This document shows, in pieces, positions 3,464-32,641 of a DNA stretch of 32,641 nucleotides (position 1 is the stretch's first letter; every line of letters begins with the position of its first letter). The notes below the pieces were generated by a model. That model was not told where the DNA came from. It saw nothing but the letters and a program-made list of their open reading frames with translations, and searched no databases. Origin of the DNA: Candidatus Altimarinota bacterium (lineage in GTDB: Bacteria; Patescibacteriota; Gracilibacteria; UBA4473). The stretch covers positions 42,442 to 75,082 of the forward strand of contig JAHDBZ010000002.1 of the NCBI GenBank assembly GCA_020630245.1, written 5' to 3'. Position numbers and translations under genes: made by a program.

Positions 3464-4822
3464 ATGATGAAGAAATTTTTATCACTTTCGGTATGTGCGT
3501 TCGCCCTAGTGCTTGGAACGTCTGCTAGTGCTTTTGCAGTAGAAACACCAAAACCCTTACAGCTACTGTTTGGTGATCAGGTTTATACTCTGAACTTTGC
3601 TACCAATCCAGAACTGCTGGGTCGAACTTCGTCACACACGCTAGAGCTAGGAGATACAAGACTGCCCCTAGACCTTGATCAGGGATTGCCACCAGTGGTA
3701 GAAAATGTTCGTATTCAAACTGAATTTGACAACGTTATTAATCGAGCAGCGCTTGAAGCGTTTTTTGTGCGCAATACACCGCTCCTTAATGATGAAACTC
3801 CACCGGTATACATCGGGTATGATGATTCTGGGAATTTTTCAGTAACTGGATTTCCGAAATCTGGGTATTACGTAGATTTTGATACGCTGGAAATTTTGGT
3901 AAATCAAGCCATCTCTTATGGTTATGAGCACGTGAGAGTGCCAGCTCAAGATGGTTATTCTCCAGTAATTCCTGATCAAGAATTGATAGATCGAGGTATT
4001 ACAGATGTTTTAGCTGTCGGTAAATCAAATTTTCGAGGTTCTTCGGCCGCTAGACGTCAAAATATTCGCGTTGCTTCTGATAAATATAACGGACTTATCC
4101 TCGCACCAGGAGAGCAATTTTCTTTTAATGGTATCCTTAAATCAGTACGACCCGAGGATGGTTATGTAGAGGAGTTGGTGATCAAGGGGAATGACACGGA
4201 AAAAGAATACGGTGGAGGGATCTGTCAGGTTTCGACGACAGTTTACCGAGCCGCTTTCAATGGAGGGTTGCAACTAGATGAACGTTTTAATCATTCATAC
4301 GCTGTGCCGTACTATCAACCGCACGGTTTTGATGCCACGATCTATCTTGGAGGCAAAGATTTTAAATTTACGAATGATACTCCCGCAGATTTGATTATTC
4401 AGACCCTGGTTTCTGGAGATGACATGTATTTTGTTTTTTATGGGACCGATGATGGACGAAAGGTAGTTTCAGAAGGGCCCTACATTTCAAATCATCGTCC
4501 AGAGCCAGCCCCTATCATTGAGGAAACAACGGTCTTGCCACCAGGAGTGCAGGAATACGTTTCCTATGGACAGGATGGGTTTGATACGGTGTGGAATCGA
4601 ACGGTTTATAAACCAGGAGAGGCGCCGCTCGAAGAAACTTTCGCCTCTTACTACAAGGCCTGGCCAGCTCGAATTGCACGAGGAGCCGGTGGGCGCTATC
4701 AAGATATCCCGGTTGAGGTCGTAGAAGAAGTAGAGCCGGTAGCTGTAACACCAGAACCGGCGCCAGCTCCGGAGTTAGATCCAGACTTTTTCTCGCTCGA
4801 AAATTCAACATTTGCCGATTAG
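3464..4822 (+). CDS. VanW family protein (secreted)
   Basis: Signal peptide MMKKFLSLSVCAFALVLGTSASAFA. The VanW core reads APGEQFSFN...GYVEELVI.G......YGGGICQVSTTVYRAAFNGGL...ER.NHSY.V.YY. The C-terminal tail is Pro-rich. Confidence 0.85.
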   Translation: MMKKFLSLSVCAFALVLGTSASAFAVETPKPLQLLFGDQVYTLNFATNPELLGRTSSHTLELGDTRLPLDLDQGLPPVVENVRIQTEFDNVINRAALEAFFVRNTPLLNDETPPVYIGYDDSGNFSVTGFPKSGYYVDFDTLEILVNQAISYGYEHVRVPAQDGYSPVIPDQELIDRGITDVLAVGKSNFRGSSAARRQNIRVASDKYNGLILAPGEQFSFNGILKSVRPEDGYVEELVIKGNDTEKEYGGGICQVSTTVYRAAFNGGLQLDERFNHSYAVPYYQPHGFDATIYLGGKDFKFTNDTPADLIIQTLVSGDDMYFVFYGTDDGRKVVSEGPYISNHRPEPAPIIEETTVLPPGVQEYVSYGQDGFDTVWNRTVYKPGEAPLEETFASYYKAWPARIARGAGGRYQDIPVEVVEEVEPVAVTPEPAPAPELDPDFFSLENSTFAD

Positions 4823-4855: not shown

Positions 4856-4888
4856 GGCCAAAAGAATTGTCCTTTGGGGCCGCTTTTT
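4856..4888 (+). terminator. Possible intrinsic terminator after the VanW gene
   Basis: GGCCAAAAG (4856-4864) pairs imperfectly with CCTTTGGGGCC (4871-4881) and is followed by GCTTTTT. The stem has an internal loop, so it is only moderately convincing. Confidence 0.4.
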
Positions 4889-4904
4889 GGCACAATTTAA
4901 AGGT

Positions 4905-6161
4905 ATGAAAATAAAAATAAATTTTTCCCTCTTGTTAATAGTGTTATGGGGAAGCTTTGTGGGGGGAGAAGCTAAAGCCTTGGATGTTATAGGTGACGCG
5001 GCCAAAGTGGTTCGTACCCAGCAAGTGGTGCCTTTGAATGTTGCAGTGAAAGAAGGGCCTTCAGCCGACAGTTTTTTTGTTGAAATATTTGCACCACGTA
5101 ATGTAGCTGGCGGCGGGCAGGCTCGTTTTTCTTGGTTTGATCAAAATCAAATTCCGGTTGGTTCTTATGCCGCTTCAGTGGGAGAAGATGATTTTTTGGG
5201 ATTATTAACAATTCGGATTCCCAAGCTTGAATTTGTTGGAGACTACCGATTACAGGCTGATATTTTTTCAGAGAATGGCTGGTTATTAGCGACGGGGAAT
5301 ACAGCAGTTCAGATTAGTTCGGGAGATGAGCGTATGCAGCTGTCGGCGCCGATACTGATCCGTAAGCCAGATGGTTTTAGTCTGAGTTTTGACGTGCGCA
5401 ACTATAATCTGCGTCAGACTGTAGTGCCTCGTCTGCAGGGTTTTTTCATTAAAAATGGAGAACGGCAATACGTTTTACAACGAAAATTGGAGCCAGTTTC
5501 GCTAGGAGCTCGACAGCGTTCGACGGTAGAGTTCGATGTCGAAGACGATTTTCCGCCAGGAGAATATTATTTAGAGGCTTGGGTCGAGTCGCCAACGGGG
5601 AAATATTTGTCCGGAGTTCTAGAGTCTTATCTCCAGTTGCCCGGTAATTATGCTCGTTTGGCCGATCTAGAAGTTAAGTTTGATGGTCAGACAGCCGACC
5701 GAGCACAGATTCTTTTTGAAGGATTTGCGCTTGTGCCTCAGGGGCGAGATTTACAAGTGTTTGTCAAAAGTGAGCACGATGGCGCGTCGCTCGCAGAATC
5801 ATCGATGTCGGTCCCAGTGGTAGATGGTTACTTTGCTGAGCGATTGGACGTAAAATTTCCAGAAACGGTGAATTTCTTCTCTGGTACTATGGAGTTGTTT
5901 TCGGGATCGGATTTTGACCTAGGAGATAGTCTGTTGACACAAGCTTTTCAATCTCCGGTAGTGGAGATTGGCGGAGGAGAAATTGTTCCGCAGCCAGTTT
6001 TGGTTCCGTCAACTACCAAAGATGGCGCACCGCTTAATTTTGCCCCTCCAATTCCTTGGTGGGAAAAATGGTGGGTGTGGTTGTGCTTGGCTTTGTTCGT
6101 GTGTGTGGGGATGGTCCTCCTGATAACGCTTACTCGCCGTAAATCTAAACGTGTTTTTTAA
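4905..6161 (+). CDS. Hypothetical surface protein: signal peptide, repeated Ig/CARDB-like beta segments, C-terminal TM anchor plus basic tail
   Basis: Long ORF with the ATG at 4905 (MKIKINFSLLLIVLWGSFVGGEA). C-terminus: WWEKWWVWLCLALFVCVGMVLLITLTRRKSKRVF. No catalytic motif recognised. First gene of a tightly packed five-gene block. Confidence 0.7.
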   Translation: MKIKINFSLLLIVLWGSFVGGEAKALDVIGDAAKVVRTQQVVPLNVAVKEGPSADSFFVEIFAPRNVAGGGQARFSWFDQNQIPVGSYAASVGEDDFLGLLTIRIPKLEFVGDYRLQADIFSENGWLLATGNTAVQISSGDERMQLSAPILIRKPDGFSLSFDVRNYNLRQTVVPRLQGFFIKNGERQYVLQRKLEPVSLGARQRSTVEFDVEDDFPPGEYYLEAWVESPTGKYLSGVLESYLQLPGNYARLADLEVKFDGQTADRAQILFEGFALVPQGRDLQVFVKSEHDGASLAESSMSVPVVDGYFAERLDVKFPETVNFFSGTMELFSGSDFDLGDSLLTQAFQSPVVEIGGGEIVPQPVLVPSTTKDGAPLNFAPPIPWWEKWWVWLCLALFVCVGMVLLITLTRRKSKRVF

Positions 6162-6169
6162 GTTTTTTT

Positions 6170-7399
6170 ATGAATAAATTTTTATGTTTCGGTCTTGCAA
6201 TATTGTTCCTATCTCCGACGCTGACGTCGGCGCAGTCAGATGTGAATATTCGGTCGCAATGTTTTGACCGCCTCAAAGAACAGGCGTTGCAAATAGAGGA
6301 CTTTCGACTGGCCAGAGCCGAACTCGAAGCGATTGATTACGCTACACTCGACAATCGATTGTCTCGTTATTACCAAGGTCATTCCTCTTTTGGAATTGAT
6401 GTTGACCAACCTATATTCGACCTGAGAGTCTTTAGTTTTGGTCGTCAGACTGGTTATGTGCACCCGCCCTATTCTCCGTTTCCGGTAGGGGCGAAGTCGG
6501 AGCAATGGAAAATGGCGGCTAAAGAATTTATCTTAGCTGAAGAATTTATTCGCAACCCAGAAGGAGAACGACAGTTTTTGGGTTGTGGTTTTTTTCGGAT
6601 TGGGGCGCGGGATCTAAAGTCTGTAACGGCGGACACCTATCTGTATGATGGTCCTGTTTCGTCTGTTATGTCGACTCAAGGTGATCACAAGTTCTGGTAC
6701 AACTTCAATACTTCGTTTAATTATGAGGATGCGCCACAGGCAAACTGGTATCGATTGTTTGTGTATCCAAAAGCTACACAAAATAGCTACTTTAGTCGTT
6801 ACGAAGTCCTCGACAGTTTTCCTGGGAATCAATTGGATGATTTATCAATCCTGACAGAAGCTGGTATTACGGCAAGACGAGCTGAGGGGGGCGATTTTAC
6901 AGAGCTTGATCCAGTAGAAACTGGCAGTGCTTTTGCGCTCAATGCCTACTATCAGGCTATAGCAGATCGTTATCCAAATTTTGCAGATCGTTTAGCACTG
7001 CGTGGGGTCTTAGAATACAAAAATCTACAGAAGATCTTGGCAAGTCCCAATAGTTCTGCCGTCAATTACGTTTGGGATACCTTGTTAGACACAAAGGACA
7101 TTACTCGTTATGCAGCGGCTCAGATTGCGGGCAAGGATATAGAGTCCGATCCCATTTTTGATCAAGTATTGAATGATCCGAAGGCTGTGAATCAATCAAT
7201 TTTGGATCTTGCTTTGGTACCTGCCTCAGACTCTGGGGTGGTCGATGTGTCGGCCGTCACGGTTACAGATCAAGTTCGAGAATCTAAGCCATTAGCTCTA
7301 CAGGATAACCGTGGTACTTTTGTGATGGTTGTAGTATTATTACTACTGTTATTCGTTCTTCTTGCTTCTTTGCTGTTCTTTGCGCGCAGACATAAATAA
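6170..7399 (+). CDS. Hypothetical surface protein: signal peptide and C-terminal TM anchor plus basic tail
   Basis: N-terminus MNKFLCFGLAILFLSPTLTSAQS. C-terminus FVMVVVLLLLLFVLLASLLFFARRHK. It starts 8 nt after the upstream gene. No known motif recognised. Confidence 0.7.
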   Translation: MNKFLCFGLAILFLSPTLTSAQSDVNIRSQCFDRLKEQALQIEDFRLARAELEAIDYATLDNRLSRYYQGHSSFGIDVDQPIFDLRVFSFGRQTGYVHPPYSPFPVGAKSEQWKMAAKEFILAEEFIRNPEGERQFLGCGFFRIGARDLKSVTADTYLYDGPVSSVMSTQGDHKFWYNFNTSFNYEDAPQANWYRLFVYPKATQNSYFSRYEVLDSFPGNQLDDLSILTEAGITARRAEGGDFTELDPVETGSAFALNAYYQAIADRYPNFADRLALRGVLEYKNLQKILASPNSSAVNYVWDTLLDTKDITRYAAAQIAGKDIESDPIFDQVLNDPKAVNQSILDLALVPASDSGVVDVSAVTVTDQVRESKPLALQDNRGTFVMVVVLLLLLFVLLASLLFFARRHK

Positions 7400-7404
7400 T
7401 TTCC

Positions 7405-8751
7405 ATGAAAAATTTTCTATCGTTATTGGCTCTCAGTTTATTTATAGGTCTGTCACTGTTTTCCTCGGCTGAGGCATTGAATTTAATTTCTGAAGAATCT
7501 GAATTTGAAGAAGACATCCTCAATCAGATCGAATTGCTGCGTTCCGACCCATTCCTAAACGTTGACCATGTAAGTGCTCATGAGCAGGACGATGTTTATG
7601 AAGCGGTGGCCGTGAGTACGACCACTCCACCAGATCTAAGCCAACAGACATCAAATGATAGTTCAATTGTCTTAGGAGCCAGAACAGGGGCCCCCTTTAC
7701 CGATCAGTGTGATGGACGGAGTCACTATGGAGCACTGAGTCATCAGCGCGGCAATTCGTTTTGTTACGGTCCAGCACCCAAAGGTTACAAGGCAACGATC
7801 GATCCGTATCTTTGTCAAAACATGGATCAGTACTTTCGTACCTGTCCGCCATTTGGGAATGGAGTGACGGGAAAAAAAGAAGACTGTGGTATGACTTCGG
7901 GTGTGACTTGGGGACCACCAGGTAAACCATCAACTACGGCCTGGGGTACATGGACTAGTTGGTGGAAAGGACTTTCTGCTTTCTGTATGAAAGAGGGATA
8001 TTGGTCTGACTCAGATGCTTCACGTCTGCCAGACGTAAATTCAAAAGCAACGATCAAATTTACGATTGCTGCTTCAGACGGGGAAAAGACTTACCGCTCG
8101 GAACAAAAGAAAAATGATAGTCAGGAAATTGTGGTTGAAGGTGATTTTGATACTAGTGGGGGTACCGCCGCGCGAACGCTCACCAGTCCTTCGTTTAATT
8201 CACCTTTTATCTACCTTACCAATCAGGTGGGCGCTGTAGCCGTTCAGCTAAACTCTCTCTGGAATCAATATCAAAGTCAGTCGCCAGCGTTCAATCTCAA
8301 AAACGGTTGGCTAGTGGACAATGATTCGCCGTCACCACTCTTCTACGAGTTAGGGCTCACACAGGTAGAGCTCAGTCGTGCGGGAATGAATTTCCAGTCA
8401 AAAGAGGCCCTAGAGAAATTTTTAACCACCGGGGATTTCTTTGATCGTTTAGGATTCACAGCCCTAGAAAAAAATAATTCACTAGGGTATTTGCTGCCAA
8501 GGCTACCAGAATCTCCACACTATTATCTAACGATTTTGGATTCAGGTTCTGTGTCTCAGCTTTCATCGATGTCAGTTGATCCAAGGCCTGAGACATTGGT
8601 TCGTCGTTACTTTGCGGTGTATCCAACTCAGGTTCCAGTCCACGCTAGCGGTGAATTGGATTATCCAGGATTAGTTTCTGATGTCGGTTTTACGGTCCGT
8701 GATTATGGTGAGATTATTGTAACCCCTGATATGTTTGTTATTTGGAAATGA
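7405..8751 (+). CDS. Hypothetical secreted Cys/Trp-rich protein
   Basis: Signal peptide MKNFLSLLALSLFIGLSLFSSAEA. There is a Cys- and Trp-rich segment (CDGRSHYG...CYGP...CQN...CPPFG...CGMTSGVTWGPPGKPSTTAWGTWTSWWKG). It starts 5 nt after the upstream gene, and its TGA overlaps the next ATG (ATGA at 8748-8751). Confidence 0.7.
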   Translation: MKNFLSLLALSLFIGLSLFSSAEALNLISEESEFEEDILNQIELLRSDPFLNVDHVSAHEQDDVYEAVAVSTTTPPDLSQQTSNDSSIVLGARTGAPFTDQCDGRSHYGALSHQRGNSFCYGPAPKGYKATIDPYLCQNMDQYFRTCPPFGNGVTGKKEDCGMTSGVTWGPPGKPSTTAWGTWTSWWKGLSAFCMKEGYWSDSDASRLPDVNSKATIKFTIAASDGEKTYRSEQKKNDSQEIVVEGDFDTSGGTAARTLTSPSFNSPFIYLTNQVGAVAVQLNSLWNQYQSQSPAFNLKNGWLVDNDSPSPLFYELGLTQVELSRAGMNFQSKEALEKFLTTGDFFDRLGFTALEKNNSLGYLLPRLPESPHYYLTILDSGSVSQLSSMSVDPRPETLVRRYFAVYPTQVPVHASGELDYPGLVSDVGFTVRDYGEIIVTPDMFVIWK

Positions 8752-11700
8752 AGATAAAAATTTTTCGGATTCAGTTTTTGTTGATGGCTTTGTTTATGCT
8801 CAGTTCACTGGGAATAGCACAGGCGGCCAATGAGCGTGTTGATTGTCTCGATAGTGGCAATTGTAGTGATTTGGTCTATACGCAACACCAAGGAAAGATC
8901 ACCGCTCGTTGTCACAGTTCTGCGACGGCTTCTAGCTTGCCGGTAAAGATTACCCTCAATGGTGATGTTTACACGGGAACTTTAGATTGTAGTAACAATG
9001 GTGGAAACGGTGGAGGCGGATCTAGTACGACCGGTCCGTGGACCATCGGACCCTGGGGGACTTGTACACAGGAGTGTGGCGGTGGCCAACAGTTTCGCGA
9101 CGTAACATGTGGCTACGATAGTTGTGATGGAGTGAGGCCGGCAGAATCTCAAGCCTGTAATACGCACGCCTGTGAAAACTGTAATGCCGATAGTTGGTTT
9201 GGAGATGATCCAGCCAATATCTGTGTGGGACAACAAGGAGTGCAAACCAATGAATGTGGTGATGAACGTAATGTTGATGGAACCTGGAATCCACAAGACT
9301 GGTCTCCACACCCCAGCGTGGTCTGCTCGTTTGATACTTTTTATCAGGGGACAAGTTGTGGTCAGGATCGCGAATCCAGCGGTTCTCGAGACTGTCAACC
9401 AACCTGGCAATGGCTGCGACCAGCCGATCCAGAACCATTAGTCAGTGCTAATGTTGAAAGTGATTTTAACAACCTACGTCTTACCGGAGATCTTTACTAC
9501 GCAGTCGCTGGTAAAGGTTTCTTCGATGTTAATGATGTACGAGCGGCTCGAGTAGTTCTCATCTCGGCCGGCAATGAATATGAATATGCGGTTAATCTTA
9601 GAGATATTACGTTCACAGATCGTGGTTATGATTTCCTGGTAGATCTTTCGGTTCTCCAAACGCAAACCCCCGCCGGAGCGGCTGGGCCGATTAATTTTTC
9701 TGATGGTGATTGGAGTGTTGATGTTATGTTTGAGCACAAGCATGATGGCATGGCTAACTATGCCTGGGTAAGGAATAGTGATAGTGGACAATTTGTTCTC
9801 GATAGCACCGCGCCAAGCGGTACGACGATACATCGACAAACAGCTGACAGTGATGCTCAAGAATATCCAGATACATTACTGACTAATGAGCCGGGTTTTC
9901 TTTGGGTCAACTGTGTCGACAGTGGGGCCGCTGGATGTCTTGGAGATGTGGCAGATCTAGATGCTGATTCTACGGTAGATAATTATCAGCCATTTGCTGT
10001 GAAAGGGAACTTCTGTCCAGATGGAGCGGTTTGTGATACATCAGGAACTCGTAGTTTTGAGATTTGCGATCGAGCCGATAATTGTAGTCTCGTAGATGCG
10101 GTACTCGACAACTATGATCCCATAGCGCCAAGTCCATTAGATTTTGTGATGGGACTGCAACCGGGAGGAGCTGGTTTTCTCGGAACGGTTCTCAAGGCCA
10201 GTGCTGACTATTTCCCAAATCTAGACTTTGTAGATCCTGGTGAAGTGATTGAAAGAGGAACGCCTAGTATCGTCGGATCTCGAGCCTACATCACTCCAGA
10301 TGACTACGATCAGATTTTTGATGAACATGCTTGTGGAGATCCAAGTGTGTCACCATTTGCGCACAATGAGGCGGATGGTCAGTGTGAACTCCAAAATAAA
10401 AATTACCCAGCTAGCTGTGAAACGCTGGCTAGTTGTCCAGATCCATGTCCGGCAGGATATTTTTGGGATGAAGGCCTCAACCGTTGTGAACAGGCGCCTA
10501 CTTGTACTGACACAACTTGGACACCGCTTGAAACAAGTGTCTGTAGTGGCACTGATTTCACACAGGTTAGTAACTGTGGGAATCGACGTTCTCGTACCGG
10601 ATCTAAAGACTGTTCGGCTACTAGTAACTGGCGGATTACTCAACCACCACTCTGTCCGATTGGTTGTGGCCAGTCTGCACAAACGTTAGAAGGAGCGGTG
10701 ACTTGTCCGGGTACCGATTGTGATCCGGCCGAGGAGCCAGCGGTTCCGACTCGAAGCTGTGCCGCCACAGAGGTCTGCCCACCTAGCTTCTCGGGAACCT
10801 GGGAAATTACTCAGCCAGAGGCTTGTTCCACCGCTTGTGGTCTTGGAGAGATTACTCTGTTGGGGAGTGTTCGATGTTCGACTGGCAATCCTTCTGATTG
10901 TGATCCCGCGCTCGAACCAACGGTGCCTACGCGACTCTGTAATGCGACTGCGACTTGTCCGCCGACGTTTACGGGAACCTGGAGTACAAATCCTGCACCG
11001 CAGTGTCCGACAAATTGTGGTGAGCCGGCTTCAACCAAAACCGGGAGTGTGAGTTGTTCTGATAATAATTGTGATCCGGCACAACGTCCGACAACTCCAA
11101 CTCAAACCTGTAGCGCGACGGCAACTTGTCCGCCGACATTTACAGGGACCTGGACAGCCAATCCTGCGCCAGCCTGCTCTACGGCCTGTGGCCAATCGGC
11201 TAGCACGCAGACCGGTACTGTAACTTGTTCTGACAACAACTGTGATCCATCTGCGAAACCGGCAGCTCGGACTCGAAGTTGTAGCGCGACGGCAACTTGT
11301 CCGCCGACATTTACAGGGACCTGGACAGCCAATCCTGCGCCAGCCTGCTCTACGGCCTGTGGCCAATCGGCTAGCACGCAGACCGGTACTGTAACTTGTT
11401 CTGACAACAACTGTGATCCGTCTGCGAAACCGGCAGCTCGGACTCGAAGTTGTAGTGCTACCGCATCTTGTCAGCCAGTTACAACTTGTAACCCTGTTGA
11501 TTATGACTTTGACGGTTGGTGTCGTCGAGATGCATCTAACCAAACTATTCCAATGTGTAACAACATCAACTTCATGGATTCTTTCTGTGGAGGTGATCCA
11601 AATTGTACGCTCCGAAATATGAATATGACTACTAATACTTGTGCCGTTTGTAGAGCTACCTTCGAAGTCTGTATTACGACGACTCCAAATTCAAACTCGA

Positions 11701-11981
11701 CCAATAATACGGCTTCTAATACTACGCCTACCTATGACGGAACCTGGAGTACAACGCCGGCACCACAATGCCCAACAGCTTACTGTGCTTTCTCAACCTC
11801 AGGTGCTGTCAATTGTTCTACAGAAGATTGTGATCCAGCCTTGCGTCCAGCCGTACCTCGTCGAGACTGTTTAAGTACCGCTGTGTGCCAGGAGGAACGC
11901 CAGTTTATTGAGAACTTAGAAAATAATTCTAATAACTCTGATCCATCAATTGATGATGGTAATAATTTTGATTTTCGATAA
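8748..11981 (+). CDS. Large secreted Cys-rich protein with thrombospondin type-1-like repeats (putative adhesin)
   Basis: Signal peptide MKIKIFRIQFLLMALFMLSSLGIAQA. A canonical TSR reads WTIGPWGTCTQECGGGQQFRDVTCGYDSCDGVRPAESQACNTHAC (9039-9173). Five consecutive 57-60 aa degenerate TSR-like units lie at 10629-11471, with one more at 11745-11888. The ATG at 8748 overlaps the upstream stop. Confidence 0.8.
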   Translation: MKIKIFRIQFLLMALFMLSSLGIAQAANERVDCLDSGNCSDLVYTQHQGKITARCHSSATASSLPVKITLNGDVYTGTLDCSNNGGNGGGGSSTTGPWTIGPWGTCTQECGGGQQFRDVTCGYDSCDGVRPAESQACNTHACENCNADSWFGDDPANICVGQQGVQTNECGDERNVDGTWNPQDWSPHPSVVCSFDTFYQGTSCGQDRESSGSRDCQPTWQWLRPADPEPLVSANVESDFNNLRLTGDLYYAVAGKGFFDVNDVRAARVVLISAGNEYEYAVNLRDITFTDRGYDFLVDLSVLQTQTPAGAAGPINFSDGDWSVDVMFEHKHDGMANYAWVRNSDSGQFVLDSTAPSGTTIHRQTADSDAQEYPDTLLTNEPGFLWVNCVDSGAAGCLGDVADLDADSTVDNYQPFAVKGNFCPDGAVCDTSGTRSFEICDRADNCSLVDAVLDNYDPIAPSPLDFVMGLQPGGAGFLGTVLKASADYFPNLDFVDPGEVIERGTPSIVGSRAYITPDDYDQIFDEHACGDPSVSPFAHNEADGQCELQNKNYPASCETLASCPDPCPAGYFWDEGLNRCEQAPTCTDTTWTPLETSVCSGTDFTQVSNCGNRRSRTGSKDCSATSNWRITQPPLCPIGCGQSAQTLEGAVTCPGTDCDPAEEPAVPTRSCAATEVCPPSFSGTWEITQPEACSTACGLGEITLLGSVRCSTGNPSDCDPALEPTVPTRLCNATATCPPTFTGTWSTNPAPQCPTNCGEPASTKTGSVSCSDNNCDPAQRPTTPTQTCSATATCPPTFTGTWTANPAPACSTACGQSASTQTGTVTCSDNNCDPSAKPAARTRSCSATATCPPTFTGTWTANPAPACSTACGQSASTQTGTVTCSDNNCDPSAKPAARTRSCSATASCQPVTTCNPVDYDFDGWCRRDASNQTIPMCNNINFMDSFCGGDPNCTLRNMNMTTNTCAVCRATFEVCITTTPNSNSTNNTASNTTPTYDGTWSTTPAPQCPTAYCAFSTSGAVNCSTEDCDPALRPAVPRRDCLSTAVCQEERQFIENLENNSNNSDPSIDDGNNFDFR
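11109..11450 (+). repeat. Near-perfect 171-bp x2 tandem duplication inside the TSR-repeat gene
   Basis: Copy 1 (11109-11279) and copy 2 (11280-11450) differ at a single position by eye (GATCCATCT versus GATCCGTCT). A diverged third copy precedes them at 10938-11108. Each unit is 57 codons, so the frame is preserved. Confidence 0.95.
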
Positions 11982-11988
11982 TTCATAA

Positions 11989-14304
11989 ATGTATAAAAAT
12001 CTAATTTCAGCTTTCGGTTTTCTTTTGATTCCAAGTCTTGTTTATGGAATAGGGGTTCCTACCTCAGGTATTGATTGGGAAGCCTCTATGATTTCTATTC
12101 AGAGTTTTGATGCCGCACACCCTACGCATGAAGCAAACTTTAGCTGTTTCGGTGGCGGTTTTTCGGATCTACCGATTTCTCGAAGTCTACAAGAAATGGC
12201 CTTTTCAAATACCAGTCCTGGACCGGAGAATGATTCAGGGCTGATTACAGGTTCTTCGTGTTTCCAACAAGCTGGAGAGTATCAACTACAGATCTCCTTA
12301 GTCGATAATGCGGGTAACATTGGTACCGCTGAGAGTTATTTACTCACGGTTCGACCCGCCGAGGCAGATTCTTTGCTCACCACTATTCGACCGATTGCTT
12401 ACGAAAAAGAAACAGACAATCCAGCTATTGGCACTCTAAATGGTAATACGACTGATTGTACGGCAGAAAGATTAGTAGCCAATGCCGAAGATGATTGTCA
12501 GCTACAGGTAAGTCTACGTGATGAATTTGGGAATGTTGTGGTAGTGAACCGACCACTCGGACGGATGGCAATCCCTGGAAGAGATATCAATAACCGAGAT
12601 CTCAATACCTTTGCGGATGCAGAGGGAGTATTTATCGATGGATTACGCCTCAACGACAGTCTAAACAATCCTTCCTTTCGAACTGATAATGATGGAAATT
12701 TTAATTTTACGGTGAGCGCTCTCGCACCTTCGATTGACATTATTACCTCGCCGATTGATGCGGCATTTAAATTGTCTCAGATTATTCCGCGTAATACACC
12801 GTTTGAATTTCCAATTCCAGCTATTGCTGATGATGGTTCTACTTCAGGGACTACAACGGTTACTAAATCTGCTGACCTACAGTTTGAGCCATGGGTGAAA
12901 TTATTTTTGAGTGACAACGCTCCAAGTGGAGGCAGTGCCTCGGCCCCTAATGAGCCACTTTACTTCTTGCTGGGAGATACCAAGGTGCTCTACGCTTTCG
13001 CAGGGACGATGCTGGACCACTTTTTGCCGAGCGGATTTGATGTTTTTGTGAAGGGGTTCAATCGCCCAGTAGGACTGTTTTTTGAAGACGAAGATCTGAC
13101 GTCTGGTTTTGGTGATATCGATGGAGACACCGTACCAGAAGGTTTAAGGATTTCATTGGCGGGGAATGCGACCTCGCGAAGTGAAGACTTCGAAACAATT
13201 CTGAAATCTGCTAGTGGTCTCTCCAGTGATGAAAATGTGGCCTTTGGCTCCAAAATTCGTCACAGTTATCGAGAGGGATCTTCTACCAAAACGGTGTTGT
13301 ACCCAGGTGGAAATCTAGGTTCTTCCATCGGTCCAGATCCAGCGTTCCCAGCGGTTACCCTTCCGGTAGATTCCATCCCAGGCGGAACTCCAGGAACAGC
13401 TACCGCTCTCTTAGTAGGAGCTGATATCGAAGGAAAAGTATTAGCCAATCAAGACGTCCGAGCTGTAAACGATGCTAATGCCAAATTTGTAACGGTCGGA
13501 GGTATAACAGCCGTTGATATTCGTGAAGATGTCACGAGAAATGCCGAAGTAATTACCCGTGGTTCAAATTCAGTTAACTCTCCGGGAAGTAATATCAACT
13601 TCAATATTAATTCTGGCTGGACAGGAGATGTTGCATACTTCGAGGATGCCACGGTTACCCTGACTGGAGCCTCCAGCCCAATGGTGTTTGACCAAGGACA
13701 AAAAACGATCGTAATCCGTGATGGAAATCTCTTTATTCCAGATGATCTTATCTACGGACCAGGATTTGATGATTCACTTGGGGTGATTTTGATTAACTCT
13801 ACGGTGAATAACCTCGATCTCGGGCATATATTTGTGAAAAATGACGTACAGCGCTTGGTCGGAACTTATTACGCGGAAGGTTCTATCCTCAGTACGGATG
13901 CGATTACCGATCCGCAGCATACTGACACGATTGCGAATCGAGAACTTACTAATATGGATGATCCCAATGCACCGCTGGGTCTACAGCTCTTACTTGAGGG
14001 AACGATCCTGACTCGGAACACCTTGGGAGGAGCGCTGCTTGATCCGCCATTCACACCGGAAGGGCCAACGACCGAGCAAGACGAGGCCATCAAATACGAT
14101 CTGCACTTCGTACGGCGTTACGTACCGCCACTGGATCCTGTGACGCTTGATCCGTTACCAGACAGTGCCAATAACAACTGTGTAAAACCAGATGGTGCTA
14201 CGTGTGATGTCAACAAGCATTCATTCGTCATCAGAGCTGATGGTCGGGTGCGAAATCTGACACCACCAGGGTTTGATCAGTTGAGTGGGTTCTCGGCGCA
14301 GTAG
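11989..14304 (+). CDS. Large hypothetical secreted protein (Ig-like plus probable beta-helix regions)
   Basis: Signal peptide MYKNLISAFGFLLIPSLVYG. A Big_1-like segment reads DCQLQVSLRDEFGNVVVVNRPLG. The C-terminal half has short beta-strand periodicity (TVTLTGASSPMVFDQGQKTIVIRDGNLFIPDD...VILINSTVNN). It starts 7 nt after the TSR gene. Confidence 0.75.
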   Translation: MYKNLISAFGFLLIPSLVYGIGVPTSGIDWEASMISIQSFDAAHPTHEANFSCFGGGFSDLPISRSLQEMAFSNTSPGPENDSGLITGSSCFQQAGEYQLQISLVDNAGNIGTAESYLLTVRPAEADSLLTTIRPIAYEKETDNPAIGTLNGNTTDCTAERLVANAEDDCQLQVSLRDEFGNVVVVNRPLGRMAIPGRDINNRDLNTFADAEGVFIDGLRLNDSLNNPSFRTDNDGNFNFTVSALAPSIDIITSPIDAAFKLSQIIPRNTPFEFPIPAIADDGSTSGTTTVTKSADLQFEPWVKLFLSDNAPSGGSASAPNEPLYFLLGDTKVLYAFAGTMLDHFLPSGFDVFVKGFNRPVGLFFEDEDLTSGFGDIDGDTVPEGLRISLAGNATSRSEDFETILKSASGLSSDENVAFGSKIRHSYREGSSTKTVLYPGGNLGSSIGPDPAFPAVTLPVDSIPGGTPGTATALLVGADIEGKVLANQDVRAVNDANAKFVTVGGITAVDIREDVTRNAEVITRGSNSVNSPGSNINFNINSGWTGDVAYFEDATVTLTGASSPMVFDQGQKTIVIRDGNLFIPDDLIYGPGFDDSLGVILINSTVNNLDLGHIFVKNDVQRLVGTYYAEGSILSTDAITDPQHTDTIANRELTNMDDPNAPLGLQLLLEGTILTRNTLGGALLDPPFTPEGPTTEQDEAIKYDLHFVRRYVPPLDPVTLDPLPDSANNNCVKPDGATCDVNKHSFVIRADGRVRNLTPPGFDQLSGFSAQ

Positions 14305-30397: not shown

Positions 30398-30402
30398 GGC
30401 AG

Positions 30403-30426
30403 ATTGCGAGATCGCGAGAACACGAG
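30403..30426. repeat. Tandem octamer tract in the convergent intergenic gap
   Basis: ATTGCGAG ATCGCGAG AACACGAG. The 19-mer AGATTGCGAGATCGCGAGA (30401-30419) is identical to 20022-20040. Confidence 0.85.
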
Positions 30427-30429
30427 ACT

Positions 30430-30801
30430 CTAGAAGGGGCGTATTTTGACAATGCTAGCGCCCATGATCACCATGACAAAGCTAACGGCACTCCACTGCC
30501 AACCAAAATCGATTTTGACGCGTTCACGAGCATCGTAGACAGCCTGCAGTTTTTCTCGGTCTGATAAAATAGCATCTTCCATCCGATCTAATCGCGTTTC
30601 GACACGGTCTAAACGAGTTTCGACGCGTTCGATTCGGTGTTCAATGTGTTCCAGGTGCTTTCCTATGGCGATGAATTTTTCGTCGATTGTATTTAGTTTT
30701 TGTTCTATGGCCTCAAAGCGTCGTTGATTTTCAGCTTCGAGGCGATCAAGCCGCTGGTTGGTGGCTTTTAACATCTGGATAACGACGTCTATTTTTTCCA
30801 T
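30430..30801 (-). CDS. Coiled-coil protein with C-terminal TM segment (XhlA-like architecture)
   Basis: Heptad-rich N-terminus with the duplicated unit RVETRLD RVETRLD (21-nt DNA repeat at about 30585-30647). C-terminal hydrophobic segment WQWSAVSFVMVIMGASIV. The family assignment is tentative. Confidence 0.6.
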   Translation of the reverse strand: MEKIDVVIQMLKATNQRLDRLEAENQRRFEAIEQKLNTIDEKFIAIGKHLEHIEHRIERVETRLDRVETRLDRMEDAILSDREKLQAVYDARERVKIDFGWQWSAVSFVMVIMGASIVKIRPF

Positions 30802-30978
30802 AGTTCATTTTTACTCTATAAACCGATGGAAAGGCAGTCAAGTAGTGGTCTTCATCTAATCTTCATGAAGTTGTATTTGCGAGTGTTAGGTGTCGTTTCT
30901 ATGGTTTGATAAAAAACTGCTAAAAAGTTAAATCCAACATTTTTTGTCTTTGGGCTCGCTTTCTGACCTTTATTTGCC

Positions 30979-31007
30979 TTGAAAAAAGGCTTAATTTAAG
31001 ATATAAT
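30979..31007 (+). promoter_or_regulatory. Consensus sigma-70-type promoter placing the TSS within a few nt of the ATG at 31017 (leaderless or near-leaderless)
   Basis: TTGAAA (30979-30984), an exact 17-nt spacer, then TATAAT (31002-31007). The ATG is 10 nt past the -10 element and there is no SD. Confidence 0.5.
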
Positions 31008-31016
31008 GCATAGATA

Positions 31017-32641
31017 ATGACAAAAACAAAAAAACTACTGGTATTGGGGTTGAGTGTACTATTTCTGTTCGGAGGTAGTGTTTTTGGACAATCGAGAGAT
31101 GAACTTAAAGCAGACATCGCAAAACTAAAGACACAAATATCTGAGGAGACGAAGAAATTAAATCCTTTTGAATTTACCTGGGGAGGATTGGGTATAACAC
31201 AGAAAACTTATACGAGAGAAGGTATAAATTCTGAGCAAACACGCATAATTGCTGAAATTGAGGAGAAAAAAACGGAAAAAATACAGGCTACTAGTTTTAT
31301 TGTGACACACGAAGCTAAATTAAAAGCAGTGGATGAGAAGGTTTCTGTAGCAGAATCTGAGCTGTCTACTAATCAGGAAAAATATAGACAGGAATGTTAT
31401 ATTCCATCTGGCAGCACCTACCAGCCTGGAACTTACAAAAATGATGATTTTTGTAGGGGGTTAGCAGAGCTTGTAGAAGAAAAAAGACAGCTACTGTTAA
31501 CCGCAAAAACAGAACAAACAGAACTGAAAAACAATGAAAAATATACTCAAAGTAGAACGTTGATTCGATCAGTAGACCAACAAATAAAGAATCTGGAATC
31601 AGATTTAGCGTTCCAAAATGATAGACTTAAAAGTTTGGAGAATGCGGAAAAAGCTCAGCAACAAAAAATTATAGACTTGCAAACAGATTTAGAAAAAAAG
31701 ATTCAGCAGCTAAACGCCCTCAACGATCAGTATAGAAAGGATTTTAACTGTGACTCTGAAGAAAATAAAAATAGTGGACGCTGTACAGGATTGGTTGACG
31801 AAGAATCGTCTCCGTGCGAGATAGGTTTTGTGGCTGCCGCTGATGGAAGTTGTAAGCCTCTTAAAGAAGATCTAGTAGAAAATTCAACTGATGACAGTAC
31901 TGCAGCTCCTACGACAGCCGATGCGGGAGGAGACAATAGTGCTGGAGATACTCCTTCAACACCAAGTCCAACGACGAGTGGATCTACTACTCCAGAACCA
32001 GTAAACCCGTCTTATCAATCTAAATTTGATACGGCTCAGGATGTTTGTCCAACTGGAGAAAGTGCGGCACGTACTCAGTGTCTAGAAGCGACCAGCGGTG
32101 GCTGTAAAAGTAAACAAGGCTCAGCACTGAGCCAGTGTCTAGCAACGGTTTGTGACGCGGAAAAAACAGCTCGTGATAAAGCTACTTGTTCGAATGAAGC
32201 CAAGAAATACGTAGAAAACAATCCACCAGCCGGCCTTGAGAACTTTCAAAACAAAGAGAAAGCCTACAACCAGGCTAAGGAGAATTATGAAAAATGTACA
32301 AAGGGAAAGACTGATGAGGAAATCAAAGAGCAATGTAAAGACGAGAAAGATAAACTTGATAAGGCAGAAGAAGAATTCGATGCGGCTAATACTGCCGATA
32401 TAAAGGACTACAACAAAGCCTTGGGCAATGCCACACAATCAGCTGACGAAGCTGATAAAGCTCGTGTCCGCCAGCAACTTCAAACGCAAACGGGTTTCTT
32501 TGATCTTAATAACCTGAGCGTCGGGAATGAAAAAAATCTTCGGATCGACGGATCAAGTGATCCAGAGAATCAAAAGAACAATATCCTGTCACGGATCATT
32601 AATCTGCTGGCACGACTCTTTGGGACGTTGGCGGTGCTAAT
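31017..32641 (+). CDS. Secreted coiled-coil / Cys-containing protein, 3'-truncated by the window edge
   Basis: The frame is open from the ATG at 31017 to the last base, so it is absent from the ORF track. Signal peptide MTKTKKLLVLGLSVLFLFGGSVFG. It has long Lys/Glu/Gln coiled-coil stretches, a Thr/Pro/Ser linker (TPSTPSPTTSGSTTPEP) and paired Cys residues. It ends in a hydrophobic stretch, ILSRIINLLARLFGTLAVL. The DNA is visibly more AT-rich than its neighbours. Confidence 0.75.
   Translation, partial: MTKTKKLLVLGLSVLFLFGGSVFGQSRDELKADIAKLKTQISEETKKLNPFEFTWGGLGITQKTYTREGINSEQTRIIAEIEEKKTEKIQATSFIVTHEAKLKAVDEKVSVAESELSTNQEKYRQECYIPSGSTYQPGTYKNDDFCRGLAELVEEKRQLLLTAKTEQTELKNNEKYTQSRTLIRSVDQQIKNLESDLAFQNDRLKSLENAEKAQQQKIIDLQTDLEKKIQQLNALNDQYRKDFNCDSEENKNSGRCTGLVDEESSPCEIGFVAAADGSCKPLKEDLVENSTDDSTAAPTTADAGGDNSAGDTPSTPSPTTSGSTTPEPVNPSYQSKFDTAQDVCPTGESAARTQCLEATSGGCKSKQGSALSQCLATVCDAEKTARDKATCSNEAKKYVENNPPAGLENFQNKEKAYNQAKENYEKCTKGKTDEEIKEQCKDEKDKLDKAEEEFDAANTADIKDYNKALGNATQSADEADKARVRQQLQTQTGFFDLNNLSVGNEKNLRIDGSSDPENQKNNILSRIINLLARLFGTLAVL

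Follow-up and report, generated by a model that had tools for sequence, protein, structure and literature searches.

The 32,641-nt stretch of DNA analysed here (the window) encodes a secreted, cysteine-rich protein with thrombospondin type-1 repeats (TSRs) that, judged by its sequence, is a probable adhesin. We consider it likely, with a probability of roughly 0.6, that this protein serves a Patescibacteria-like bacterium in adhesion or recognition at the cell surface, with the domain identities described below and with tethering through an anchored partner. The protein has 1077 aa when translated from the ATG at 8748; with the TTG at 8742 as start codon, it has 1079 aa. It contains 76 cysteines. 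The mature form has a net charge of −74. It is a bacterial modular protein, disulfide-rich and very acidic, with predicted Sec export. The signal peptide is followed by a short N-terminal region with cysteines, one canonical TSR, and two Cys repeats of approximately 30 aa. Next come a beta-rich central module, another copy of the Cys repeat, five TSR-derived repeats in tandem, a linker rich in Cys, and a sixth TSR-derived repeat. The features are as follows.

8748–11981, + strand: gene encoding the secreted, Cys-rich protein with TSRs (ORF list; single uninterrupted ORF).
8748–8825, + strand: Sec-type signal peptide MKIKIFRIQFLLMALFMLSSLGIAQA, read from the sequence, with predicted cleavage between AQA and A.
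9039–9173 (aa 100–144), + strand: TSR1, canonical TSR of the ADAMTS subtype (PF19030 match; W-x4-W, CGGG, Q-x-R, six Cys).
9210–9284 (aa 157–181), + strand: small Cys repeat, copy 1 (HMM 19.3 bits, i-E 2.4e-5).
9300–9386 (aa 187–215), + strand: small Cys repeat, copy 2 (HMM 25.7 bits, i-E 2.4e-7).
9399–10511 (aa 220–590), + strand: conserved beta-rich central module (motif VKGNFC..C...R...CD...NC......YDPI.P, Cys-rich tail).
10518–10604 (aa 593–621), + strand: small Cys repeat, copy 3 (HMM 32.9 bits, i-E 1.3e-9).
10629–10784 (aa 630–681), + strand: putative diverged TSR, copy 1 (six Cys in canonical register; aligns to TSR3 of homologue P0001).
10800–10964 (aa 687–741), + strand: putative diverged TSR, copy 2 (in-register PF19030; aligns to TSR4 of P0001).
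10980–11135 (aa 747–798), + strand: putative diverged TSR, copy 3 (AF2 model, Foldseek, HMM score).
11151–11306 (aa 804–855), + strand: putative diverged TSR, copy 4 (bacterial TSR HMM).
11322–11477 (aa 861–912), + strand: putative diverged TSR, copy 5 (near-identical recent duplicate of copy 4).
11487–11735, + strand: Cys-rich segment (8 Cys), then an N/T/S-rich linker (sequence).
11745–11891 (aa 1002–1050), + strand: putative diverged TSR-like copy 6 (likeness to the other diverged copies).

PF19030 (TSP1_ADAMTS) was the sole family matched in the Pfam search of the TSR protein, and the Cys-rich segment at 11487–11735 matched no family in that search. TSR1 scored 27.4 bits against PF19030 within the full protein (cut-off 23.8) and 37.9 bits (E 2e-9) when scanned alone, spanning model positions 1–55 of 55; its score against PF00090 (TSP_1) was 19.2 bits, slightly under the cut-off of 21.6. 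The translation of 9039–9173 is identical to the peptide given in the initial annotation, and the signal peptide together with the PF19030 match bears out its description of a secreted bacterial protein carrying a TSR. The cysteine spacing of TSR1, C1-x3-C2-G ... C3 ... C4 ... C5-x4-C6, is the group-1 pattern, and in HMMER alignments all six cysteines align with those of the TSRs of thrombospondin-1 (TSP-1) and semaphorin-5A (Sema5A). TSR1 has two Trp residues in the W-x4-W spacing, a single Arg in strand B (QQFRDV), and Gln at other ladder positions. W-x4-W is the ADAMTS-type Trp spacing, and TSR1 also shares the C-x3-C-G-G-G, Q-x-R-x-V-x-C, and C-x4-C spacings of ADAMTS-type TSRs (PF19030). 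The semaphorin-5A TSR in the PDB matches TSR1 with an E value of 0.003. A profile built from TSR1 and the four canonical TSRs of P0001 matched thrombospondin-1 TSR structures with an E value of 6e-11, and the six cysteines of TSP-1 TSR2/TSR3 (PDB 1LSL, 3R6B, 7YYK) align with the canonical bacterial TSR profile. These matches indicate that TSR1 is a genuine TSR of the ADAMTS subtype. The label "ADAMTS-like" holds for the repeat subtype but does not extend to the architecture, because the reprolysin, disintegrin, and spacer domains of ADAMTS/ADAMTSL proteins are absent from the protein in Pfam searches. It also differs from the apicomplexan TRAP adhesins, which consist of vWA, TSR, TM helix, and cytoplasmic tail, in that it has no vWA match and no apparent TM segment.

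The TSR family was first defined in animals and apicomplexans. The literature treats the TSR as an animal-type adhesion domain (PMC3417536), which, together with ADAMTS being the best Pfam subtype, would favour horizontal acquisition from a eukaryote and binding to a eukaryotic host or extracellular matrix. We consider this quite improbable. TSR1 is 62% identical to a Magnetococcales copy and scored 58.2 bits against the bacterial TSR profile, whereas the highest-scoring eukaryotic PDB chain reached 18.7 bits. Its closest relatives are thus bacterial TSRs, and a recent acquisition from a eukaryote is not indicated. In addition, TSRs are dispersed over many prokaryotic phyla, those of the present protein are flanked by modules seen only in prokaryotic-type proteins, and no other eukaryote-like domain was found in the locus by Pfam. 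The suggestions that the domain was acquired horizontally and that it binds a eukaryotic host surface find no support here, and the locus contains no sign of a eukaryotic host.

One narrow motif scan of prokaryotic species-representative genomes gave 48 TSR loci, contrary to the expectation of few bacterial examples. They are found in archaea and, among bacteria, in Magnetococcales, Bdellovibrionota (one of them on the complete chromosome of a Bdellovibrio), Myxococcota, Patescibacteria, and gut Bacilli, and many come from predatory or host-dependent lineages. The loci lie in long ORFs on contigs with a GC content of 0.28 to 0.73, and several score very strongly in Pfam, up to 364 bits. Those of a Magnetococcales MAG (L002/L004), Proteobacteria UBA2136 (L005), Bdellovibrio sp. 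HCB290 (L032), Patescibacteria (L017/L044/L047), and Gracilibacteria (L012/L030), like the TSRs of the metagenomic homologue P0001, are of the same subtype as TSR1 and share with it the pattern W..G.W..CS.TCGGGTQTR.V.C....C.G..P...Q.CNTQAC, with 43–62% identity among the ranked loci. The N-termini of the prokaryotic TSR ORFs examined are hydrophobic and signal- or anchor-like. Among other combinations, a gut Bacilli MAG encodes a TSR and a type-IV-pilin N-methylation signal on one protein, PKD and TSR are combined in one Nanoarchaeia protein, and a myxobacterial MAG ORF (L006) has the full ADAMTS-like architecture of propeptide, reprolysin, disintegrin, and TSRs. TSRs are thus not confined to animals and apicomplexans but are scattered over many prokaryotic phyla, and their presence in many bacterial genomes argues that the window protein is not a rare eukaryotic import. 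Searches of the open literature gave no description of prokaryotic TSRs and no binding data for any of them.

In regards to the six degenerate units, their W...C-x3-C motifs start at 10629, 10800, 10980, 11151, 11322, and 11745, exactly as the initial annotation had placed them. The five tandem copies also form a tandem repeat at the DNA level (period 171, 3.2 copies, 83% matches). Copies 4 and 5 are identical at 157/171 nt; among the 10 differing codons, 6 are synonymous, and the 4 replacements all fall within the last six residues. The seven TSRs counted earlier comprise one repeat above the Pfam cut-off and six strongly diverged units below it. Scanned singly against Pfam, none of the six reached a curated cut-off and two gave no TSP1 match; the best scores against PF19030 were 13.5 (copy 2, E 0.09), 11.6, and 10.4 bits (E 0.09–0.84), in register. 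We also scored the copies against a bacterial TSR HMM built from 139 instances, with 1000 shuffles of each copy as the control. Copies 2 and 4 scored 10.7 and 17.3 bits, values reached by none of the shuffles, and copies 1 and 3 scored 6.8 and 6.0 bits, values reached by 3/1000 and 13/1000 shuffles, respectively. The score of copy 6 was no better than those of its shuffles, and the link of this copy to TSRs therefore runs indirectly, through the other diverged copies, to which it is 45% (copy 1) and 54% (copy 3, joint alignment) identical.

These units might instead be an unrelated or convergent Cys-rich repeat that shares the C-x3-C-G spacing by chance. Besides the sub-threshold Pfam scores, this explanation is favoured by the residues of the units: each has one Trp, the second Trp is absent, and strand B carries T/S/G/K/L in place of the Arg ladder. 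The C4-C5 and C5-C6 spacers are longer than in canonical TSRs, and unlike the solved TSRs, the units have no residues for layered Trp-Arg stacking. Furthermore, a PDB profile search with the diverged repeats gave no match, and no relatives of the ladder-less repeat were found among 5.8 billion proteins. The AF2 model of copy 3 (pLDDT 92.2) has three strands, but canonical TSRs were among the sequences aligned as its input, and their presence biases the prediction toward the TSR fold. The top 21 PDB matches of this model in Foldseek were all TSRs, with E values of 0.33 or worse and TM of approximately 0.5; the weak E values are attributable to the tiny size of the domain. They included THSD7A (8OXR), properdin (6S08), Unc5D (5FTT), Sema5A (8CKG), BAI1 (7R84), TSP-1, TRAP, and F-spondin.

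A chance resemblance is nevertheless improbable in view of the alignments. In hhalign, the diverged and canonical repeats aligned with 73% probability and an E value of 3e-5 with C1–C5 in register, and in the joint MAFFT alignment the six Cys, as well as W, V, and P, show no variation, the one exception being copy 6, which has C-x4-C without Gly in place of the CG motif. Two consecutive diverged repeats matched TSR3-4 of P0001 in BLASTP (30% identity, E 1e-4), at the position occupied by canonical TSRs in that homologue, and the array matched TSR arrays of other bacteria in tblastn (E 1e-8 to 1e-10). Together with the shuffle-controlled HMM scores and the model of copy 3, which is confident despite the bias of its input, these results make diverged TSRs the best explanation of the six degenerate units, which keep the six-Cys framework and have lost the Trp-Arg ladder. 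Convergent use of the fold, which had been proposed as another option, is unlikely because sequence homology is detectable. The other prokaryotic TSR proteins named here keep canonical TSRs, and among them all the ladder-less variant occurs only in the window protein.

The second Cys module noted previously is real and lies within 3 nt of the positions assigned to it; three copies are present, not two. It belongs to a family without a name, with the consensus WxPxxSTVCxGxxFTQxNxCGxxRxxxGT, which is widespread in bacteria. The HMM was built from repeats of the unrelated proteins P0003, P0005, P0012, and P0016, and a search of the six-frame translation of the window gave nothing significant beyond the three copies. 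The central module had no Pfam, NCBIfam, or PDB match, and its AF2 model was unreliable (pLDDT 44.8). In a profile search of 1.84 billion representatives, it was found in at least a dozen proteins of approximately 770–1030 aa (E 4e-40 to 8e-7), and the alignment has 24 invariant columns; the motif and the C-terminal Cys pattern are both present in the TSR protein. The family includes P0004, P0006, P0008, P0025, P0040, P0045, P0050, P0057, and the L030 Gracilibacteria ORF, which are prokaryotic envelope proteins composed of an N-domain, a TM segment, and the central module.

The TSR gene is a member of a tightly packed cluster that encodes secreted and membrane-anchored envelope proteins. The neighbouring genes are as follows.

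3464–4822, + strand: VanW-domain protein, upstream neighbour (Pfam VanW, E 9e-41).
4887–6161, + strand: probable partner gene (signal peptide, beta-rich domain, C-terminal transmembrane anchor).
6170–7399, + strand: cluster gene (signal peptide and C-terminal TM; no known family matched).
7405–8751, + strand: cluster gene (signal peptide; no known family matched).
11989–14304, + strand: downstream secreted protein of 771 aa, beginning 7 nt past the TSR gene.

Gaps in the 6170–8751 part of the cluster are 5–8 nt, with a 4-nt overlap with the TSR gene. The ATG of the TSR gene at 8748 overlaps the TGA stop of the upstream gene as ATGA, which indicates translational coupling. The downstream protein has weak Ig-like matches (He_PIG/Big_13). 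Its C-terminal domain matches a portion of P0081 at 28% identity (E 1e-21), and P0081 also bears the small Cys repeat. The window further contains MutS, Mur ligase, S41 protease, VanW, Wzy_C, DUF4012, and D-Ala-D-Ala carboxypeptidase, in keeping with a bacterial origin.

P0001, a metagenomic protein with 49% identity, is the only close homologue of the TSR protein. The central module, the small Cys repeats, and the N-domain partner of the window are all present in P0001 and the L030 ORF as well. A 56% identical homologue of the VanW-domain protein lies immediately upstream of P0001 on its contig (L001). The probable kinship of the bacterium with Patescibacteria is read from the genes of the window and from these relatives on L001 and L030. 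After the third small Cys repeat, P0001 has two canonical TSRs, whereas the window protein has the diverged array. An assembly artefact or eukaryotic contamination giving a chimeric ORF is hardly credible. The GC content is slightly higher at 9–11 kb (0.49–0.51) than in the flanks (0.44), within a range of 0.44–0.51 across the locus, but this shift is nothing specific and is explained by the Cys/Gly/Pro/Ala/Thr-rich composition. On the other side, the ORF is uninterrupted, begins with a bacterial signal peptide, and is translationally coupled to its neighbours, and an independent metagenome contig has the same architecture with conserved neighbours.

No hydrophobic segment was seen in the sequence after the signal peptide, and the TSR protein, without an anchor of its own, might therefore be released from the cell. 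We propose that it is held at the cell surface via the anchored product of 4887–6161. The N-terminal domain of P0001 is a homologue of this product (59% identity), as are the N-terminal domains of six other proteins. In P0001, P0045, P0050, P0025, P0040, and P0008, a TM segment joins this N-domain to the central module within one protein, and the same fusion occurs in the L030 ORF. The window instead encodes the N-domain/TM part in a gene of its own, with two extra genes between, whereas it is fused in P0001. The fusions in the relatives support tethering to the 4887–6161 product. Thus held, the disulfide-stapled TSR-like units would project as a rigid rod, and the protein would mediate adhesion to, or recognition of, another surface; for an episymbiotic lineage, the envelope of a bacterial host would be the most plausible one. 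Binding may fall to the canonical TSR, the small Cys repeats, and the central module, and the array, rich in S/T/P/A and without the ladder, may serve mainly as a stalk or spacer.

Mammalian TSRs bind the bacterial envelope, as reported in a preprint for BAI1 with the LPS core, mindin with LPS and LTA, and TSP-1 with peptidoglycan (doi 10.1101/2023.01.30.525907). The TSRs of BAI1, mindin/spondin-2, and TSP-1 belong to the same domain family and recognise envelope glycoconjugates like the ligand proposed here. Eukaryotic TSRs bind anionic ligands through an electropositive face (doi 10.1101/2023.01.30.525907), whereas TSR1 (net charge −3) and the tandem array (net charge −7) are neutral to acidic and lack such a face, which counts against the proposed role.

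Alternatively, the protein could be part of the envelope structure, for example a scaffold associated with an S-layer, a spacer, or an organiser of the cell wall, and bind no other cells. We regard this as unlikely, although several observations fit it: the cluster adjoins VanW, the S41 protease, a family-4 glycosyltransferase, an O-antigen ligase-like protein, and the D-Ala-D-Ala carboxypeptidase; the VanW adjacency is conserved on L001; and the stalk-like array has no ligand-binding Trp-Arg face. Adhesion is suggested instead by the TSRs and the multi-copy small Cys repeats, which are typical of adhesive or recognition proteins, by the pilin-linked TSR of another bacterium, which points to adhesive use, and by the recent repeat duplication, a feature that fits variable surface adhesins better. 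These three points are not decisive.

We offer as an unlikely extension that TSR-fold modules are widely used for adhesion by prokaryotes with a predatory, episymbiotic, or host-dependent life (Bdellovibrionota, Myxococcota, Patescibacteria, Nanoarchaeia, and reduced gut Bacilli), which would grip prey or host envelopes with them, with the ladder-less repeat as a derivative and possible shared ancestry with eukaryotic TSRs. If so, the window protein would be a new derivative in which the three-disulfide scaffold alone provides a stalk or a new binding surface, and eukaryotic TSRs, including the LPS- and peptidoglycan-binding ones of innate immunity, could share an ancient envelope-binding ancestry and not be an animal invention. 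The ladder-less repeat suggests that a TSR sequence can drift far while its disulfide framework is kept, which would help in building more sensitive domain models. Partner-cell recognition by ultrasmall episymbionts and bacterial predators is little understood, and secreted multi-repeat proteins such as this one are concrete candidates for it.

The gene encoding the TSR protein lies in a single unbroken ORF that opens with TTG at 8742. Translation probably begins at the ATG at 8748, where an ATGA combines this start with the TGA stop of the preceding gene. The product opens with a signal peptide typical of Sec export (MKIKIFRIQFLLMALFMLSSLGIAQA|A), and 76 cysteines make up 7% of its residues. 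The peptide quoted in the initial annotation for nt 9039–9173 was identical to the translation, and the starts of the W...C-x3-C motifs (10629, 10800, 10980, 11151, 11322, and 11745) agreed with the positions reported there. The mature protein (window 8826–11978) was extremely acidic (net charge −74; 126 D+E versus 52 K+R), for which a saline habitat or cation binding could be the cause.

Features of the TSR gene
8742 (TTG) to 11981, + strand: TSR gene, single unbroken ORF
9210–9284, + strand: small Cys repeat copy 1 (aa 157–181), HMM match
9300–9386, + strand: small Cys repeat copy 2 (aa 187–215), HMM match
10518–10604, + strand: small Cys repeat copy 3 (aa 593–621), HMM match

Residues 100–144 (TSR1) matched Pfam PF19030 (TSP1_ADAMTS) over its whole length. 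Scanned alone, the repeat scored 37.9 bits (E 2e-9), and in the context of the full protein 27.4 bits; both values exceed the curated cut-off of 23.8 bits. The closest solved structure by sequence was a semaphorin-5A TSR. A profile of TSR1 and the four canonical TSRs of P0001, a metagenomic protein and the only close homologue, matched thrombospondin-1 TSR structures with an E of 6e-11 and with all six cysteines aligned. These sequence comparisons support a solid assignment of residues 100–144 as a canonical TSR.

We surveyed one genome per prokaryotic species using one narrow peptide pattern, which gave 48 loci.

Distribution of the TSR loci
Bdellovibrionota: 8, one on a complete Bdellovibrio chromosome
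Myxococcota: 5
Patescibacteria, Gracilibacteria or Saccharibacteria: 5
Gut Bacilli: about 9
Other groups: Magnetococcales, Nanoarchaeia, Methanosarcinales, and several further phyla

The repeats were located in long ORFs on contigs with a GC content of 0.28–0.73 and reached Pfam scores of up to 364 bits. Bacterial TSRs are thus less unusual than had been supposed. No description of prokaryotic type-1 TSRs was found in the open literature; in the papers retrieved, "bacterial thrombospondin" refers to type-3 repeats, and TSP1 was still regarded as an animal-type domain in a 2012 review (PMC3417536). TSR1 was 62% identical to a Magnetococcales copy and scored 58 bits on the bacterial profile versus 38 bits on the Pfam ADAMTS model; TSR1 therefore belongs to a bacterial TSR population. 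As to the two origins initially proposed, these comparisons give no sign that the repeat was imported recently from a eukaryote, and convergence is unlikely because sequence homology is detectable.

Among the other TSR proteins, a 1093-aa ORF of an Archangiaceae MAG (L006:67–3345, JAACJQ010000269.1; contig GC 0.69) carries M12B reprolysin metalloprotease and disintegrin domains, a reprolysin propeptide, and six or more TSP1_ADAMTS repeats. By its domain matches, this myxobacterial ORF has the complete architecture of an ADAMTS-like protein, and we found no paper in the open literature that links ADAMTS to myxobacteria in this sense. A TSR protein of a gut Bacilli MAG (L023:4666–6606, GC 0.28) opens with a type-IV-pilin N-methylation motif, and an archaeal protein of a Nanoarchaeia MAG (L025:4442–7267) combines PKD domains with a TSR. 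The latter two sequences suggest an adhesive use of prokaryotic TSRs.

In regards to the six diverged repeats (copies 1–5 in tandem and copy 6 isolated), three matched PF19030 in register when scanned singly, at only 10–13.5 bits, and the remaining ones gave no TSP1 match in Pfam. Each thus fell below the Pfam cut-off. A profile of the diverged repeats found no match in the PDB or among 5.8 billion proteins. Even so, several independent comparisons linked these repeats to TSRs. Profile–profile comparison with canonical bacterial TSRs gave a probability of 73% and an E of 3e-5, with cysteines C1–C5 in register, and a joint MAFFT alignment of diverged and canonical repeats retained an invariant W, six Cys, one Val, and one Pro. 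P0001 carries two canonical TSRs immediately after its third small Cys repeat, where the window protein has the diverged array, and two successive diverged repeats aligned with those two TSRs in BLASTP (30% identity, E 1e-4). Using tblastn, the array matched TSR arrays in unrelated bacteria with E values of 1e-8 to 1e-10. Against a bacterial TSR HMM built from 139 TSR instances of the 48 loci, copies 1–4 scored 6.0–17.3 bits, levels reached by no more than 13 in 1000 shuffles of the same composition, and copy 6 was indistinguishable from shuffles.

The AlphaFold2 model of copy 3, whose input alignment included canonical TSRs, had three strands and a pLDDT of 92.2. When this model was compared with the PDB in Foldseek, all 21 top-ranking matches were TSR structures, though with E values of 0.33 or worse. 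The diverged repeats possess a single Trp, not two, and a strand B without Arg, and the defining Trp–Arg ladder has therefore been lost. From the sequence comparisons and the model, we conclude that the six repeats are a TSR-derived, ladder-less variant, which is so far unique to the window protein. At the DNA level, a tandem repeat with a 171-bp unit spans the last 3.2 tandem copies. Copies 4 and 5 share 157 of 171 nt; 10 codons differ, 6 of them synonymously, and all four replacements fall within the final six residues.

The second Cys module of the initial annotation proved to be real, with three copies by HMM, not two. The HMM was built from repeats of the unrelated proteins P0003, P0005, P0012, and P0016, and apart from the three copies in the window protein it gave no significant match when run on all six reading frames of the window. 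The repeat comprises about 30 aa (approximately W-x-P-x2-S-T-V-C-x-G-x2-F-T-Q-x-N-x-C-G-x2-R-x3-G-T) and occurs in many copies each in numerous database proteins. Neither Pfam nor NCBIfam holds a model for it, and Pfam gave no match on the proteins that carry it.

The central module (aa 220–590, approximately 370 aa between the repeats) had no match in Pfam or NCBIfam, its profile found nothing significant in the PDB, and the AF2 model of this region was unreliable (pLDDT 44.8). A word-indexed protein search with this region by itself gave no match and missed even P0001, probably because the index caps the number of candidates. An exhaustive profile search retrieved 221 proteins at E ≤ 0.001, the majority of which share the small Cys repeat only; at least 12 (about 770–1030 aa) contain the central module at residues ~430–800. 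P0001 was 49% identical to the window protein across 60% of the query. A scan of metagenome contigs with two alignments (A3 and A8) yielded no relatives.

The central-module proteins, like an ORF of locus L030 (Gracilibacteria MAG; genetic code 25), have an N-terminal beta-rich domain, then a TM segment, and then the central module. In the window, the N-terminal domain and TM anchor are encoded apart, by gene 4887–6161, and two extra genes (6170–7399 and 7405–8751) lie between it and the TSR gene. The 4887–6161 product shared 59% identity with the N-terminal part of P0001, and six further proteins have a homologous N-domain. Because this part is fused to the central module in the relatives, a Rosetta-stone link suggests an association between the two window proteins. 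The product also carries a signal peptide, and it is joined to the central module in P0001, the L030 ORF, and several others; genes 4887–6161 and 8748–11981 versus the single polypeptides L001:1398–5606 (P0001's contig) and L030:2106–5480 represent a gene fission or fusion. Directly upstream of the latter, L030:454–2094 encodes a second secreted protein with a TSR, and TSR genes therefore cluster at that locus.

The window is plainly bacterial by its gene content (MutS, Mur ligase, S41 protease, VanW, family-4 glycosyltransferase, a Wzy_C protein, DUF4012, and D-Ala-D-Ala carboxypeptidase), with the standard genetic code, TGA as a stop, and a fairly even GC content (0.44–0.51). Judged by its genes and by the kinship with the L030 Gracilibacteria MAG, the organism is probably Patescibacteria-like. 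The genes between 2129 and 15358 share one direction with gaps of 3–64 nt. Five consecutive genes at 4887–14304 encode signal peptides, two with C-terminal anchors as well, and NCBIfam had no match for the TSR protein or its four unassigned neighbours. The secreted protein encoded downstream (771 aa, window 11989–14304) resembles P0081, another carrier of the small Cys repeat, at its C-terminal end: its last ~280 aa share 28% identity (E 1e-21) with the C-terminal part of P0081. Towards the N-terminus, the 771-aa protein shows a D-x-AGN motif with weak Ig-like matches. Rfam and tRNA scans of the whole window found no rRNA, tRNA, or RNA family, and a promoter/terminator scan did not exceed shuffles and did not inform the operon limits. 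The window end (30400–32641) has low GC (0.38), a strong positive AT skew (0.25), and mostly short ORFs, the lone longer one being a 123-aa coiled-coil-like ORF with RLDRVETRLDR repeats (30430–30801, − strand). The VanW gene upstream is also kept on P0001's contig. The VanW and cell-wall gene neighbourhood lends support to the main rival explanation, in which the window protein is purely structural in the envelope.

We infer instead a putative role in surface adhesion or recognition, because the protein is secreted and disulfide-rich, has a repeat architecture with recent duplication, and is probably tethered through the anchored 4887–6161 product. The pilin-signal TSR protein of another bacterium, the many survey loci from predatory or host-dependent lineages, and the reported binding of mammalian TSRs to the bacterial envelope components LPS, lipoteichoic acid, and peptidoglycan (doi 10.1101/2023.01.30.525907) point the same way. 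Charge speaks against a straightforward parallel with those mammalian proteins: the electropositive face that they use is missing from TSR1 and from the array, both of which are neutral to acidic. The ladder-less array, rich in S/T/P/A, may therefore serve chiefly as a rigid stalk. The initial reading of the repeats as TSRs is retained, but such repeats are not rare in bacteria, and neither a recent eukaryotic origin nor a eukaryotic target is evident. The window protein is a new addition to the under-described prokaryotic TSR proteins, and two of its accompanying modules are unnamed.
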